This document shows positions 1-19,924 of a stretch of 64,000 bases of DNA, piece by piece. A program made the position numbers and the translations under genes. Positions within the stretch are counted from its first letter, which is position 1. Each line of letters opens with the position of its first letter. The DNA lies in sequence record PZ452584.1; one strand, given 5' to 3'. This DNA is from a phage. The notes under the pieces are model-generated. The model worked only from the letters and a program-made list of their open reading frames with translations. It was not told the DNA's origin and ran no database searches.

Positions 1-1434
1 AATTCGTGCCTTTTCACCTTCACTAAATGAAGCATAACTAAAATCTTCACGACCACGGGATTTAATTGTCTCATTAAATTCTTCATCTAATGTAAACACA
101 TAATCCGCTTCCATTATTTTAAGATAATGGTTAATCTGCTTATTAAATAATGGAATGTACTTTTTAATAATAGCACCTTTAATACCAGAATCTTTGAGCA
201 TATCAGTCAAAATTCCTCGGTGGTATTTTTCCATTACTAAATTAGTTTTTGTCTTAACAATTTTATCAAGTTCTTCTTGAAGCAGTGCTATTTCATCAGC
301 ATGGTCAATAAACTCAGAAGATGCTTTTTCTATAGCTGCTTTAACTTTTTTAGCTTTATCTACCGTCGTGATTAGAGATTGCTTTTTATTGCGAATATCA
401 TTTGCCAACGACTGCTGGGTTTTAATATTATCTCGGTATTCATCAACAAGAACTTTTAAATTATCACGATGTGTTGAAAGCTGTTCAAACGAATGCGTAC
501 ATTCAGAAACTTTATCTTTAATTTTAGAAACAACTTTATCACCGGAACTTAATTGTGACAGACAGGTTGGACATAATCCGCCTTCGTGATACATATTAAT
601 GACTTTATTATACGAGTCAATTTTTGATTTAATTAAAACTGCTTCTTGACCGATTTTATTAAATGCATCAGTCGGGTCTTCATCCAAAACAATATTAACT
701 AATCTTTCATTAGCTTCTTCTATTTCCGATTTTAGCGTTCTAGCTTCTTTTGCCAAATCATCATACATATTTTGCAGACGAGTAAGATTGTCACCCGTTA
801 ATTTTTTCTGGCGTTCAACGTTATCATTATATATTTTAATTTGTTGGATAATACTATCTTTTTTAACATCAAGCACTTGGTTTTGTGAATTTAATTCACG
901 TATTAGTGCTTTATTAAGCTTATCCATTTCAGCTAATGTTCCTACCTCAAGCAGGTCTTCCACAAGCTTTCTTCGTGCAGGGGTCGACAAACCCATGAAA
1001 GGGGTATACCCTGCTGTACCAAGGACAACAATCTGCTTGAAACTGGCATATGACATTCCGATAAGCTGTTCAAATTCTGCTTGGAAATCTTTACTGCTGG
1101 CAGATTCATTAAGACGTGTACCGTTAACGGTGATTTCGAAAACGTTTGGTTTTTGTCCTCTTTTGATATAGTACTTTTTCTCATCATATTCCATCCACAG
1201 TTCAACTAAAAGTTCTTTCTTATTTGTGCTGTTTATTAATTGACCTTTCTTTACATCACGAAATGGCTTGCCAAAAAGCCCAAATGTGATGGCTTCTAAC
1301 ATAGTAGACTTACCACCGCCATTTCGTCCAGTAATAAGAGTTTTTTGAACCTTATCTAATTGAATGTCAACTCCATTTTGACCAACTGACATTATATTTT
1401 TATATTTTACTCTATTAAGTTTAAATGATTTCAT
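1..1434 (-). CDS. 46: Recombination nuclease subunit gp46 (Rad50/SbcC-like ATPase); 3' end cut by window edge
   Basis: Minus-strand ATG at 1432-1434 gives MKSFKLNRVKYKNIMSVGQNGVDIQLDKVQKTLITGRNGGGKST (Walker A); no complete ORF in this frame appears in the track, consistent with it running off the window; lies downstream of gene 47 as in T4. Confidence 0.85.
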   Translation of the reverse strand, partial: MKSFKLNRVKYKNIMSVGQNGVDIQLDKVQKTLITGRNGGGKSTMLEAITFGLFGKPFRDVKKGQLINSTNKKELLVELWMEYDEKKYYIKRGQKPNVFEITVNGTRLNESASSKDFQAEFEQLIGMSYASFKQIVVLGTAGYTPFMGLSTPARRKLVEDLLEVGTLAEMDKLNKALIRELNSQNQVLDVKKDSIIQQIKIYNDNVERQKKLTGDNLTRLQNMYDDLAKEARTLKSEIEEANERLVNIVLDEDPTDAFNKIGQEAVLIKSKIDSYNKVINMYHEGGLCPTCLSQLSSGDKVVSKIKDKVSECTHSFEQLSTHRDNLKVLVDEYRDNIKTQQSLANDIRNKKQSLITTVDKAKKVKAAIEKASSEFIDHADEIALLQEELDKIVKTKTNLVMEKYHRGILTDMLKDSGIKGAIIKKYIPLFNKQINHYLKIMEADYVFTLDEEFNETIKSRGREDFSYASFSEGEKARI

Positions 1435-1449
1435 TTTGTATCCAATTGT

Positions 1450-2304
1450 TCACAATGAAGAAAATTCTTTAACTAAAGCCTGTAATGAAGCCTCTATTGG
1501 ATATCCATTCTTAACTAACATTTTCCTAAACATCACATGTTTAGGACGATTATATGATATCCACAATTCATACAATTTATCTTTATTATCCCAATGATAG
1601 CCTTTTCGTCGAGATGCTATATGAGCTTTTCTAATCTCCGGATTTTTCCAACTAGCAGCTACTGAATTTGATATAGCTATTTTATATTCAGGTTTTGATA
1701 AAGCAGCACGAACAGCCTTTTGGTGTTTAATTTTATTTTCTTCGTTATTAAACCATTCCCTTGAAGCCATTGAAATTTTTTGTTTTGTTTTAAAATTATT
1801 TAATCTTTCTTTGTTATCTTTCCTATTTTTTGCTACTGAAAAATATTTTAATGCCCTTTCTCTAGCAGCATTTCTATTTTGCGGATTTGAATAATATTGT
1901 TGAAGCCTTTTTGATATTGTGTCACTTACATCTTGTTTTATAAAACTATATTCAGCAGCTATTAAATCAACTTCGGCTAAAGATAAATTTTTATATGTTT
2001 TTCCTGACATCATTCTATTTAAAGCATTTAGCATTTTTCCATTTTTACCTTTTGCTAATAAGAAATGTGCTTTAAAATGATTAAAATGACTTAAATTAAC
2101 TAAATTCCATGTAGATTTTAAATATTCAGGAAATATTGATTTAGGAAGCACGTGATGTGCTTCCGTTTTACCTGGAGTTTTAACAGTTGAATTCATAGAA
2201 ATAAAATTAATGTAAGACTTGGCGTCTTCTTCACTCAACGCTAATTTTTCAACTAATTCCTTTATTAAAAATTCATCATTAATGTCAAGTTTAAAATTCT
2301 TCAC
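1450..2304 (-). mobile_element. Free-standing HNH homing endonuclease gene (Mob-like), copy 1
   Basis: 284-aa ORF with GKTEAHHVLPKSIFPEY...NLVNLSHFNHFKAH (His-His...Asn...His pattern) and basic C-terminal repeats; paralog of ORF 9987-10826; first codon in the track frame is GTG overlapping the upstream stop. Confidence 0.6.
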
Positions 2305-2564
2305 AAAAGATTCCTTTTAATGTATCTTTTAGACCATTCTATCATATCATCATAATCTAAAAAGTATTCATCAAATTCAGCCATGCAAACAACGCCTTGT
2401 GCTGCTTTTGATGTGATATAAATTATTCCAACATATCTAGAATCTTCTTCGGTATAATCAATGTTTGCTATGAATTCATCATTGATGTCAAATGTCGAAA
2501 ACTTCACAGTATGCATCCTTAATACAAGATACAGCCATATCTCGTAATGATTTAGGTGTGTCAT
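2301..2564 (-). CDS. Hypothetical protein (46.x position); contains FDINDEF...EED segment resembling the N-terminus of the adjacent HNH ORF
   Basis: Track ORF; true start probably internal (MHTVKF...); 77-nt overlap with the next ORF. Confidence 0.35.
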   Translation of the reverse strand: MTHLNHYEIWLYLVLRMHTVKFSTFDINDEFIANIDYTEEDSRYVGIIYITSKAAQGVVCMAEFDEYFLDYDDMIEWSKRYIKRNLL

Positions 2565-9526: not shown

Positions 9527-9997
9527 TTAATCATGTTTCCACACCCCATCGGTATTTGACCAAAGTCGCTGATTATCTGATCCTCGCCACAGCTTTTTGG
9601 TCGGAAGATTTTTCTCATACTTCCCATCAATAATAACATCAACATATTTAAGCATTTCTAGTTGTTTAATATCTTCAAACTTATATCCTGTCCACAACCA
9701 AATGCTTTTATTGGGATAAAGATTTTTTACTGTTTGAACAATGCAATGAATAACATCTCGATTGTCAGGATAAAGAGGGTCACCTCCGGTTATAGTTAAT
9801 CCTTCTATATAATCATTATTCAAACATTCAATTAATTGTTCTAGTGTTTCACCAGTGAATGGAATACCATTTCTAGCATTCCATGTTGATTTATTATAAC
9901 ACCCTTCGCATTTATGCAAACAACCTGTAACGAAAAGAACTGTCCTGCATCCAGGACCATTAACAAAGCAGCACGGGTATATTCTGTCATAATTCAT
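9527..9997 (-). CDS. nrdG: Anaerobic ribonucleotide reductase activating protein (radical SAM)
   Basis: MNYDRIYPCCFVNGPGCRTVLFVTGCLHKCEGCYN: CxxxCxxC cluster, 156 aa. Confidence 0.9.
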   Translation of the reverse strand: MNYDRIYPCCFVNGPGCRTVLFVTGCLHKCEGCYNKSTWNARNGIPFTGETLEQLIECLNNDYIEGLTITGGDPLYPDNRDVIHCIVQTVKNLYPNKSIWLWTGYKFEDIKQLEMLKYVDVIIDGKYEKNLPTKKLWRGSDNQRLWSNTDGVWKHD

Positions 9998-10826
9998 TTA
10001 TATATTTCCAATTATAGCCTTCAACACTTTTACGTTCGCCATTTAAACATTTTAAAATATTTCCTTTGCTAGAAATATTAAAATATTTTGCTGCGTCTGG
10101 TATATAATTAAATGTTTTTAAAAGAACACCATCTTTATATGCGCCAAATAAATTAAGAGTATATTTTTCTCGAAGACGCTGATGTTTCCTTTTCATAACC
10201 TCAGGATTTGCATACGCCAACTTCAATGAATTTCTGTGTTTTTCTTTTACTTCAGGTTTTTGCATTGCTAACTTAGTTAGCCTGGAAATTTTATTTCTAA
10301 CTTCGTCAGTTTTCATTGCATTTGACAAATTTAATAAAGTTTTATTTCTAACTTCAGGTTTTTGCATTGCTAACTTAGTTAGTTCTCTATGTCTTTTTCT
10401 AAAATCGTCATCCTTCCATATATTTTTCGATAATTTTGACATAGAGCGGTGAAATAATTCCTTTTCACTGGAATACAATTTAAAAATTTCATCCAATTCA
10501 TCCGCATTAAATCTATCGGTATTCGAGTTTATCATTCTATGAAAGGCATAACACATTTTACTATTGCTTGTTTTAGCTAAATAGTAATGAGCTAACGCAT
10601 GGTCATAATATGACAAATTAACAATATTCCATTTATCTGTTTTATATTCAGGAAATATAGATTTGGGAAGCACGTGATGTGCTTCCGTTTTTCCTTTTAT
10701 TTTAGGATTATTATAATTTTTTGTTATCAAATCAACATATGACAATAGTAAATCATTATTTTCTTCAAATATTAAAGCTAATTTATCATTCACAAAATCG
10801 CAAGGATAAAATCTATCATAATTCAT
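9987..10826 (-). mobile_element. Free-standing HNH homing endonuclease gene (Mob-like), copy 2, inserted between nrdD and nrdG
   Basis: 279 aa; GKTEAHHVLPKSIFPEY motif shared with ORF 1450-2304; first 13 codons (MNYDRFYPCDFVN) duplicate the nrdG N-terminus; perfect 32-bp tandem repeat inside. Confidence 0.65.
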
Positions 10827-12640
10827 TGGTGTTTAACCCTATGCATGATTTCTTTATTTTTACCGAGATTAAATCCGCGTTCGTTCGGGTTTCCAAGATA
10901 TCCGCATGTTCTTCTTATTGTATTCATCTTTTTAGGATCAGTTTCTCCACAAATAGAACAAACAAATCCGTTTTCAGTAGGAGTCATTTCATGGGTACTT
11001 CCACATGTAAAACATTTATCTACTGGCATATTAACACCAAAATAATCTAAATGTTGTGCAGCATAATCCCATACGGCCTCAAGGCCTTTTAGGTTATTTT
11101 TCATATCAGGAAGTTCAACATAAGAAATGTGACCACCTGTCGCAATGAAATGATATGGTGCTTCACGAGAAATTTTTTCAAACGGAGTAATATTTTCTTC
11201 TACTGAAACGTGGAAACTGTTAGTGTACCATCCTTTATCAGTAACATCCTTTACACTTCCATATTTTTCGGTATCGAGTTTACAGAAGCGATAACAAAGG
11301 TTTTCAGCAGGAGTAGAATACAAACTAAAAGCAAATCCGGTTCTTTCAGTCCACTGTTTAAGATGGGCATTCATTTTAGTTAAAATTTCTTGTCCAATAT
11401 CACGACCGGCAAGAATATTCAATTCGTGAATACCAATGTATCCTAGAGACACTGAACTTCTACCGTTTTTAAATAACTCAATTATGTCGTCATCAGGTTT
11501 AAGACGAACCCCGAATGCACCTTCTTGGTAAAGAATAGGAGCAACAGTAGCTTTAACTCCTTTTAAGGAACTAATTCTACACATCAAGGCTTCAAAACAT
11601 AAATCCATTCGTTCATTGAACAATTCGATAAATTTCTGTTCATTGAACTGTGTTCCAATATAAGAATCTAACGCAATACGAGGAAGATTCAGTGTTACAA
11701 CACCGAGATTATTACGTCCATCAAGAATTTCATTGCCAGTCGAATCTTTCCATACGCTCAAGAAACTACGACAACCCATTGGAGAAACAGGAATAGATGA
11801 GCCGGTGATAGCTTTATTGTTCTTAGCTGAAATAATATCAGGATACATTCTTTTGCTTGCGCACTCTAGAGCAAGCTGTTTAATATCATAGTTCGGATCG
11901 TCTTTATAAAGATTAACACCTTCTTCAACGAACATAACAAGCTTAGGGAAAATAGGAGTTATCCCATCACGACCGAGACCTTTAATACGATTTTTCAGAA
12001 TTGCTTTCTGAATCATTCGTTCAGTCCAGTCAGTTCCTGTACCAAATGTAATTGTTACAAAAGGTGTTTGTCCGTTTGAACTAAAGAGAGTATTTACTTC
12101 ATATTCATAAGCTTGGAATGCATCGTATACGTCTTTTTCTGTTTTAGATTGGGCATAATTCAGTGCATCGGCGATTTGCCATTTTTCTGCGTCCTCGATA
12201 TGTTTTGCATAGGTGCGTTTAACATAAGGAGAAAGTACTTTATCTACATTCGCAAAAGTCGTTCCGCCGTATTGGTGAGAAGCAACCTGTGCGGTAATTT
12301 GTGCCATAATTGCAGTAGCAACGCCAATTGATTTAGGAGTTTCAATCTGCGCATTACCAAGCTTAAATCCGTTCTCAAGCATTCCTTTTAAATCTACTAA
12401 ACAGCAATTAGTAAATGGAAGAGCAGGGGAATAATCAATATCATGAAAATGAATAATTCCGCTTTCATGCGCTTTCATAATAAAAGACGGGACCATATTT
12501 TTGGCAATGTGTTTAGACACAATACCAGCCATAAGGTCCCGTTGAGTTGGAAAAACACGAGAATCTTTGTTAGCATTCTCGTTTAAAAGGTCTTTATTAG
12601 TTTTATGAATCAATCCTTCAATTTCTTTTTCAATTGTCAT
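10823..12640 (-). CDS. nrdD: Anaerobic ribonucleoside-triphosphate reductase (glycyl-radical enzyme), uninterrupted
   Basis: 605-aa continuous ORF with C-terminal zinc ribbon and glycyl-radical region (...RRTCGYLGNP...). Confidence 0.95.
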   Translation of the reverse strand: MTIEKEIEGLIHKTNKDLLNENANKDSRVFPTQRDLMAGIVSKHIAKNMVPSFIMKAHESGIIHFHDIDYSPALPFTNCCLVDLKGMLENGFKLGNAQIETPKSIGVATAIMAQITAQVASHQYGGTTFANVDKVLSPYVKRTYAKHIEDAEKWQIADALNYAQSKTEKDVYDAFQAYEYEVNTLFSSNGQTPFVTITFGTGTDWTERMIQKAILKNRIKGLGRDGITPIFPKLVMFVEEGVNLYKDDPNYDIKQLALECASKRMYPDIISAKNNKAITGSSIPVSPMGCRSFLSVWKDSTGNEILDGRNNLGVVTLNLPRIALDSYIGTQFNEQKFIELFNERMDLCFEALMCRISSLKGVKATVAPILYQEGAFGVRLKPDDDIIELFKNGRSSVSLGYIGIHELNILAGRDIGQEILTKMNAHLKQWTERTGFAFSLYSTPAENLCYRFCKLDTEKYGSVKDVTDKGWYTNSFHVSVEENITPFEKISREAPYHFIATGGHISYVELPDMKNNLKGLEAVWDYAAQHLDYFGVNMPVDKCFTCGSTHEMTPTENGFVCSICGETDPKKMNTIRRTCGYLGNPNERGFNLGKNKEIMHRVKHQ

Positions 12641-19901: not shown

Positions 19902-19924
19902 TTTCTGTTCCTCCGTAGTTGATA

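Follow-up and report, generated by a model that had tools for sequence, protein, structure and literature searches.

The junction of nrdD and nrdG, the genes for the large subunit and the activase of the anaerobic ribonucleotide reductase, is occupied in the phage sequence record PZ452584.1 by an HNH homing-endonuclease gene (HEG; here, HEG1). The window analyzed is the whole stretch of 64,000 nucleotides, and positions refer to it throughout. A sequence-only reading of the window had described the open reading frames (ORFs) at the junction, their overlaps, and a direct repeat, all of which were recovered by our ORF calls and repeat search; it was silent on the strand, and by the ORF calls nrdD, HEG1, and nrdG all lie on the minus strand. 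The features of the junction, including single-nucleotide polymorphisms (SNPs) against the HEG-free F1, are as follows.

12640..10823, minus: nrdD, anaerobic ribonucleotide reductase large subunit, 605 aa, intronless (ORF call; named nrdD in near-identical phages).
10826..9987, minus: HEG1, HNH homing-endonuclease ORF, 279 aa, start MNYDRFYPCDFVND (ORF call, PHROG 655, BLASTP).
10826..10788, minus: leader, resident nrdG nt 1-39 (ATG plus 13 codons, MNYDRFYPCDFVN), serving as the HEG1 5' end (39/39 against F1 nrdG).
10787..9959, minus: putative inserted cassette, 829 bp, HEG1 from codon 14 plus replacement nrdG nt 1-39 (alignment to the F1 empty site; repeat spacing).
9997..9959, minus: putative replacement nrdG 5' module, CC type, MNYDRIYPCCFVN, carried by the cassette (allele comparison; divergence between the window and phage Roth04).
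9997..9527, minus: nrdG, anaerobic ribonucleotide reductase activase, 156 aa, intact, start MNYDRIYPCCFVNG (ORF call).
9958..9941, minus: putative short extra co-converted nrdG tract, with SNPs at nt 42 and nt 57 against F1 (SNP profile).

The HEG1 ATG (10826-10824) overlaps the nrdD TGA stop as ATGA, and the final HEG1 codons (AAT GAA TTA TGA) overlap the nrdG ATG by 11 nt. The nrdG ATG lies 8 nt before the HEG1 stop in the window and directly after it in phage KP01, a position that points to coupled translation in the order upstream gene, HEG1, nrdG. The activase gene was left intact, as had been stated, in the form of a complete 156-aa ORF whose product is identical to the F1 NrdG protein from codon 14 onward.

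HEG1 and nrdG begin alike, the first 13 codons of HEG1 (MNYDRFYPCDFVN) echoing the NrdG start (MNYDRIYPCCFVN) 829 bp downstream. The repeat search placed this direct repeat at 9958-9998 and 10787-10827 (41 nt, 78% identity, spacing 829; 31/41 when counted from the ATG). The chance of that match count for one fixed pair is ~2e-10, and repeat pairs of this quality at 200- to 2000-nt spacing numbered five in the real window and zero in three shuffled windows; the repeat is non-random, and a version of the nrdG 5' end lies on each side of the element, as first proposed. Four other diverged direct repeats (41 to 57 nt, 330 to 1440 nt apart) occur in the window at 19917/21357, 32354/33386, 32674/33312, and 41483/41813. 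The 19917/21357 pair falls between ORFs, and all four pairs resemble repeated promoter regions, unrelated to endonuclease genes.

The empty site was read from F1, the flanks of which are ~97% identical to the window. F1 reads nrdD...CACCA ATGAATTATGATAGATTTTATCCTTGCGATTTTGTGAATG GCCCTGG..., with the junction ...CACCAATGAATTATGATAGATTTTATCCTTGCGATTTTGTGAATG|GCCCTGG; the window agrees with this as far as the bar, beyond which it has the endonuclease body. The upstream copy of the repeat, the first 39 nt of HEG1, matched the F1 nrdG start at 39/39 positions, which agrees with the proposal that HEG1 starts on the codon that serves nrdG in HEG-free phages. This FD-type start is common (~460 records over 70 nt, mostly HEG-free) and, in a spread sample, adjoined nrdD directly in 54/55 full-length matches; the IMG/VR contigs found had it in all but one, which carries a MNYDRIYPCDFVN variant (L023). 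The downstream copy, from which nrdG now starts, is a CC-type allele (81 records, 17 of them 100% identical over 70 nt), and among the matches listed this type adjoined an annotated endonuclease gene (HEG1 type or segH) in at least 50 of 60. HEG-free relatives carry a single nrdG start; a second copy in such relatives, which the sequence-only reading had named as grounds for abandoning its account, was not found.

Differences between the window and F1 are concentrated at the nrdG start: nt 1-60 hold 11 (SNP density, 18 per 100 nt), nt 61-200 hold none, and the flanks show ~3 per 100 nt. The replacement module has 8 to 9 substitutions relative to the resident start, eight of them within nt 12-30 (window 9986..9968), and changes NrdG by F6I and D10C. 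Phage KK4 is without the changes at nt 42 and nt 57, so the co-converted tract varies in length, and its downstream copy is identical to the nrdG start of the HEG-free phage U5 (60/60). The two copies match two circulating alleles; the repeat therefore consists of two natural alleles, resident upstream and imported downstream, and not of one sequence that has drifted.

Target duplication was one origin that had been suggested for the repeat, namely, that ~41 bp of the recipient nrdG start was recently doubled and the copies then drifted apart. A direct repeat does bracket the element, and when the cassette first arose an nrdG 5' end must have been duplicated or captured in some way. However, the copies differ at 9 to 10 of 41 positions (~22%), while the surrounding DNA is ~3% from the HEG-free relative, and both copies have exact counterparts among circulating nrdG alleles (the leader 39/39 to the HEG-free allele; the first 70 nt of nrdG 100% in other HEG-bearing phages and seldom seen without a HEG). 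A second genus likewise has a resident-allele leader and a CC-type downstream copy. In neither genus, then, do both copies appear to be the recipient's own target sequence, as a transposon-style duplication would predict, and we regard this origin as extremely improbable. The other origin suggested, acquisition together with donor flanking sequence, fared better with its roles reversed: the HEG-proximal copy is the resident one, and nrdG now begins with the imported, HEG-distal copy.

The second genus is Jiaodavirus, in which a 77-aa DUF7415 ORF lies between nrdD and nrdG, overlaps both, and is present with or without HEG1 (L003, 1853-2086; L027/L028, 1267-1500). In the HEG-free Klebsiella phages Roth34, K65_evo7, and KMI12, nrdG starts ATGAATTTCGACAGAATCTACCCTTCTGACTTTGTGAATGG (MNFDRIYPSDFVNG; SD type). 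The endonuclease of Roth04 has 86% protein identity to HEG1, and its leader matches K65_evo7 nrdG at 39/39 positions; in the Klebsiella phages a strong GAGGTAAGG stands ahead of the leader ATG. After the endonuclease, Roth04 nrdG starts MNYDRIYPCCFVN (29/39 against the resident start) and returns to resident sequence at about nt 31. Compared with Roth04, the window is 85.2% identical in the HEG body and 84.6% in the replacement module, against 76.9% in the leader, 76.0% in the nrdD 3' end, and 67.2% in the rest of nrdG. The module diverges like the HEG body and the leader like the host, so the module moves with the endonuclease and the leader with the host. A resident leader with a CC-type downstream copy was also found in KP01, EcMI02, KK4, and PST, and the rule was obeyed by all six HEG1-bearing genomes compared, from two genera; among all full-length proteins retrieved from the P0001 and P0003 clusters, the leader was FD or SD type and never CC type. 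Given that the DUF7415 ORF lies upstream in the Klebsiella phages, the common factor is the nrdG start and not nrdD coupling. The earlier claim that the element takes over an nrdD-coupled start thus stands for the capture of the nrdG initiation region and falls for the part assigned to nrdD.

Our reading is that HEG1 is a free-standing 829-bp HNH cassette inserted in frame inside nrdG between nt 39 and nt 40 (after codon 13), together with a replacement nrdG 5' end, and we put its probability at roughly three in four. The first 39 nt of HEG1 are the recipient nrdG start, which leaves the endonuclease without an initiation region of its own; it is evidently translated from the nrdG ribosome-binding region, ATG, and first 13 codons. 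Because the replacement module is in frame with the rest of the resident nrdG, the phage keeps a coding sequence for the whole NrdG protein, and nrdG can presumably be translated by coupling to the endonuclease.

The protein belongs with phage Mob-type endonucleases. HEG1 matched PHROG 655 ("homing endonuclease") with an E value of 7e-37 and PHROG 12434 ("HNH endonuclease") with an E value of 7e-15, in line with the initial call of a free-standing HNH homing-endonuclease gene at the junction, and BLASTP aligned it to T4 MobC over the 60-aa HNH core (38% identity; E value, 1e-7). Its parts, given with the predicted local distance difference test (pLDDT) score where a model contributed, are as follows.

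10694..10575, minus: HNH catalytic core, approximately residues 45-84, GKTEAHHVLPKS...WNIVNLSYYDHALAH (homolog alignment, MobC alignment, model pLDDT ~90).
10382..10239, minus: internal 42-nt repeat with a 102-nt period, LTKLAMQKPEV... units, linker/DNA-binding region (repeat search, 90% identity).
10145..9993, minus: C-terminal NUMOD/I-HmuI-like helix-turn-helix, candidate DNA-binding module, ending GYNWKYINEL (weak Pfam, PHROG 7140).

The motif reads AHHVLPKS...WNIVNLS...DHALAH, with H50, H51, N67, H76, and H80 invariant in the homolog alignment, and so appears to hold the His...Asn...His catalytic residues and beta-beta-alpha core of the PHROG 655 endonucleases. Toward the C terminus, residues 235-272 matched PF22083 (21.1 bits; cutoff, 27) and PF07453 (17.3 bits; cutoff, 22.8), both below threshold, and PHROG 7140 matched residues 228-278, a region of low model confidence. 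A metagenomic variant (P0002) is short of one LTKLAMQKPEV unit with the frame kept, an outcome that recombination between the repeats would give. Between the window and a Klebsiella-phage copy, the ratio of nonsynonymous to synonymous substitution rates (dN/dS) was 0.08 (dS, 0.86), which by this measure places the HEG1 protein under strong purifying selection; together with the spread over two phage genera, it indicates an apparently active, mobile gene.

The leader might instead be a dead stump of nrdG, with the endonuclease starting internally, for example at the GTG of codon 12, and the fusion having no role. Some automatic annotations do start at codon 12 (the 268-aa P0017 and P0018), and residues 1-8 are predicted to be unstructured (coil in the model). 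Yet the frame that begins at the resident ATG is uninterrupted in all full-length copies from both genera, and also in a paralog at gene 46 described below. The codon-12 GTG is GTT in PST, and no other start with a ribosome site precedes the HNH motif, the first internal Met being residue 91. The GAGGTAAGG of the Klebsiella phages stands before the leader ATG, and in the model codons 9-13 begin helix 1 (residues 9-20, pLDDT ~90), which crosses the fusion joint CDFVN|DKLALIF. We consider a dead stump quite unlikely. At the position of this helix start, HEG1 paralogs carry ELVEKLAL or DLLKSKL, so the nrdG codons probably took the place of a similar native helix start; this suggests that the first fusion may have been guided by chance similarity.

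HEG1 was found in 32 of ~837 phage records holding the region, at ≥90% identity in 22 (Escherichia, Shigella, Salmonella, and Yersinia phages) and at 80 to 90% in 10 (Klebsiella phages). A search of 5.8 billion proteins returned only three close clusters, and IMG/VR held HEG-free nrdG starts with no HEG1 copy. Near-identical phages label the gene "mobC" or "homing endonuclease". As judged by comparison of the records, HEG1 behaves as a mobile gene in three respects. It is present or absent at one exact site in near-identical genomes, with the empty site defined to the nucleotide in two genera; it is accompanied by a substitution patch, probably left by co-conversion, with a variable tract end (KK4 against the window); and the cassette is 85% identical between Escherichia- and Klebsiella-type phages, against 67 to 76% for nrdD and nrdG, as expected of horizontal spread. 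A unit of endonuclease plus replacement module has evidently moved between Tequatrovirus (Escherichia-type) and Jiaodavirus (Klebsiella-type) T4-like phages. HEG1 would further be predicted to cut the HEG-free allele at a specific site and to be inherited preferentially when phages infect together.

These data also bear on whether HEG1 could be a decaying, immobile remnant, a vertically inherited mobC ortholog with the repeat as a relic. It does lie where T4 mobC lies and overlaps nrdG in the same stop/start manner, the product in phage BF15 is annotated at 228 aa, and P0002 has lost a repeat unit. The identity to T4 MobC is nevertheless 38% over 60 aa, against >95% in the flanks; the gene comes and goes among near-identical genomes; and the cassette is more alike between genera than the host genes are, with a low dN/dS. 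We hold a remnant to be very unlikely.

The HEG1 enzyme is predicted to cut naive nrdG near the insertion point, and the insertion would split the site. The recoded patch 10 to 28 nt upstream of the junction, especially GA to TG at nt 28-29, would shield the rebuilt nrdG; relative to each of the two resident types, the two CC versions share a change at nt 24 and the GA to TG at nt 28-29, which lie 10 to 15 nt upstream of the junction. Loss of the cassette by repeat recombination would be hindered by the divergence between the copies, and the match of the KK4 downstream copy to the U5 start is what such a loss would leave. The cassette itself may have originated by an illegitimate, microhomology-guided fusion in which the native helix start seen in the paralogs was swapped for nrdG DFVN.

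Several points weigh against this account. Among 60 CC-type matches listed, two (U5 and ESh24) are clearly HEG-free, and the CC-type start also occurs beside segH, so it is possibly a hitch-hiking population allele and not part of the cassette. The base-by-base comparison covered six HEG1-bearing genomes, from two genera, of ~32 records. Pfam HNH models gave no match above threshold for HEG1, and the AlphaFold model was of moderate quality (mean pLDDT, 67; 8 sequences). The cleavage site and activity of HEG1 and the protective role of the patch are predictions drawn from sequence comparison. SegH, at the same nrdD/nrdG junction, reportedly cuts HEG-bearing and HEG-free DNA alike, so immunity by flank recoding is not assured here.

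The possibility that the CC-type start is an ordinary population allele, linked to HEG1 by hitch-hiking or by crossover exchange with segH, gains from U5 and ESh24 and from segH itself, which is usually followed by the CC-type start (100% over 70 nt in SYGD1, L026; 98.6% in T6) and occurs with the FD allele in Pu-Krd-SF6 (L025). It meets difficulty in the Klebsiella phages, where the three HEG-free genomes examined are SD type and the two HEG-bearing genomes compared base by base, Roth04 and KP01, are CC type, and in the divergence of the module, which is in step with the HEG body and not with the host. Moreover, insertion after nt 39 leaves nrdG startless unless the insert supplies a start. 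We judge this explanation unlikely and retain the cassette with its own nrdG 5' end.

A second endonuclease gene in the window, HEG2, lies between 46.1 and gene 46 and is absent from T4.

2304..1450, minus: HEG2, paralogous HNH endonuclease, 284 aa, in frame after gene 46 codon 6 (ORF call; 32 to 36% identity to HEG1).
2304..2287, minus: HEG2 leader (T4 comparison).
1434..1417, minus: recoded gene 46 start (T4 comparison).

T4 gene 46 starts GTGAAGAATTTTAAACTT on a GTGA overlap with the 46.1 stop; HEG2 begins on this GTG, its leader equal to the T4 start at 18/18 positions. A 15-nt spacer separates the HEG2 stop from the new gene 46 start, ATGAAATCATTTAAACTT (MKSFKL), the resident start being GTGAAGAAT and the recoded one ATGAAATCA. 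A junction search returned 71 records that match over the full length (HEG2 plus recoded start) and 74, including T4 and PST, that match only from gene 46 nt 10. At both sites the recoded patch starts ~10 nt upstream of the insertion (nrdG nt 12-30 against 39/40; gene 46 nt 1-9 against 18/19). HEG2 shares the architecture of HEG1, which makes start capture look like a habit of this endonuclease lineage and not an accident at nrdG. HEG1 and HEG2 could represent a class of startless, promoterless cassettes that sit in the first codons of conserved phage genes, join the initiation region of the host gene in frame, and carry a recoded spare 5' end, which would rebuild the gene, give self-immunity by eliminating the site that the enzyme recognizes, and prevent loss by repeat recombination; we advance this class tentatively, at somewhat less than even odds.

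HEG2 codons 7-12 (GACATTAATGATGAATTT, DINDEF; 2286..2269) match codons 7-12 of T4 46.1 at 17/18 positions and those of the window's own 46.1 (VKFSTFDINDEF; 2489..2472, minus) at 16/18. The HEG2 5' end accordingly looks like gene 46 codons 1-6 joined to 46.1 codons 7-12, and the 46.1-like codons may be an older capture.

A third relative, at the 47/46 site of phage F2 (L037, 1223-2083), has its own ATG start (MTKTDYETQIY...) and no start capture; 46.1 is absent, and the gene overlaps the gene 46 GTG start by 14 nt, a conventional arrangement that may be a different or earlier state. A relative in DK-13 showed no similarity to the start of the downstream ORF. By these comparisons, the capture architecture is not universal among related endonucleases.

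Around the junction, scans of the nrdD-nrdG region for promoters and terminators found nothing beyond shuffled expectation; the sole late-promoter-like match in the region, TATAAATG (7/8), is at the nrdG start. At 9957-9942 (minus), just 3' of the insertion point, the co-converted GGT codon makes a perfect 6-bp hairpin (GTCCTG GATG CAGGAC) that is followed by a T-rich run; the stem is mismatched in the HEG-free F1. The nrdD gene, intronless in the window, is split by the I-TevII intron in PST and T4, and the F1 nrdD annotation is split too, consistent with an intervening sequence. The nrdD intron and HEG1 are distributed differently, so the two mobile elements of the operon are inherited independently.

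Free-standing HEGs of T4-like phages are usually described between genes, and an intron, an intein, or a split host gene is generally regarded as the way by which they can enter a coding sequence. The HEG1 cassette would enter a reading frame by way of a portable replacement gene start, taking over the translation signals of the host gene. If true, the class of startless cassettes would add to introns and inteins a third way of entering coding sequence, with predicted target sites at about nt 10-45 of nrdG and nt 1-30 of gene 46. The cassette model would explain the dense patch of 5'-end substitutions seen in nrdG and gene 46 of some phages, and it offers predictions, at the level of single nucleotides, of what determines target choice and immunity for two uncharacterized enzymes. 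As of 2005, DNA cleavage had reportedly been demonstrated for none of the mob gene products; the HNH endonuclease at the mobC site now becomes directly testable. The sequence-only reading had supposed the arrangement to be undescribed. This holds for the in-frame capture of a 5' end in phages, of which no description was found in the literature searched in full text, with prior mention in Sandegren et al. 2005 or Miller et al. 2003 possible; it does not extend to the site, at which mobC in T4 and segH in T6 are known.

T4 mobC and segH are the known occupants of the nrdD/nrdG junction (PMC2988022; bioRxiv 10.1101/2022.08.31.505936); segH takes the place of mobC in T6, and MobC activity is given as "not determined" in the Edgell 2010 review (PMC2988022). 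T4 mobC resembles HEG1 in its junction, its ATG on the nrdD stop, the 11-nt overlap of its last codons (DEL*) with the nrdG ATG, and its membership of PHROG 655, but it encodes 210 aa and is 38% identical over the 60-aa HNH core only. True MobC relatives (45% identity over 96% of the length) occur in phages Matisse and leE. HEG1 thus has the position of mobC without the full-length similarity expected of an ortholog, and with similarity confined to the HNH core it is a distant paralog at the mobC site. The "mobC" label in PST is positional, and the annotation covers at least two unrelated genes.

The MNYDRIY start of T4 mobC was considered as the same nrdG capture and downgraded to ambiguous, MNYxxIY being native to MobB/MobC-like proteins elsewhere. 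T4 MobB starts MNYLNIY, and the MobC-like proteins of Matisse and leE start MNYQKIY and MNYHKIY, all resembling NrdG MNY(D/I)RIY (T4, L004, 4907-5539 and ~531-680; Matisse, L030, 1456-2097; leE, L031, 1456-2097). The Matisse and leE genes adjoin nrdG in Slopekvirus and Pseudotevenvirus, and a native likeness of MNYxxIY to the NrdG start may have guided insertion beside nrdG. At the level of sequence, capture of nrdG codons is unambiguous for HEG1 and ambiguous for T4 mobC.

The segH gene shares the nrdD/nrdG junction with HEG1, and the nrdG start downstream of it is often of the identical CC type. In contrast to HEG1, the segH product is of the unrelated GIY-YIG family and starts MHRYY, and the gene has no nrdG-derived leader and lies just outside nrdG. 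It is accompanied by a recoded nrdD 3' end, T6 NrdD (L013, AY262137, 1440-2400) ending TPSVVPWNLGKMKEMVKRVKHA instead of NPNERGFNLGKNKEIMHRVKHQ. The common flank suggests that endonuclease cassettes may be exchanged on it.

Entry of an HNH Mob cassette into an essential gene with neither intron nor intein, compensated by extra cassette sequence, is known from T4 mobA/gene 60 and Aeh1 mobE/nrdA (bioRxiv 10.1101/2022.08.31.505936; PMC3653736). In those cases the host protein is split into two polypeptides with added tails or translational bypass, whereas NrdG stays in one piece. Endonucleases of introns and inteins resemble HEG1 in that insertion inside conserved coding sequence disrupts the putative recognition site; HEG1 differs in doing without splicing, continuity being restored in the DNA by the spare 5' end. 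In fungal mitochondria, endonuclease ORFs lie at the 3' ends of genes (Allomyces atp6, Ophiostoma rps3, and Phlebia atp6/cox2), fused in frame, with the displaced terminus supplied or duplicated, the host gene complete, and another copy of the terminus beyond the element, as for HEG1 (PMC4019555; PMC12308204). Those elements are of the LAGLIDADG or GIY-YIG type and reside in organelles, whereas HEG1 is an HNH gene of a virulent phage that takes over the start of its host gene; by analogy, its arrangement may be seen as the 5'-end mirror image of the mitochondrial 3'-end insertions.

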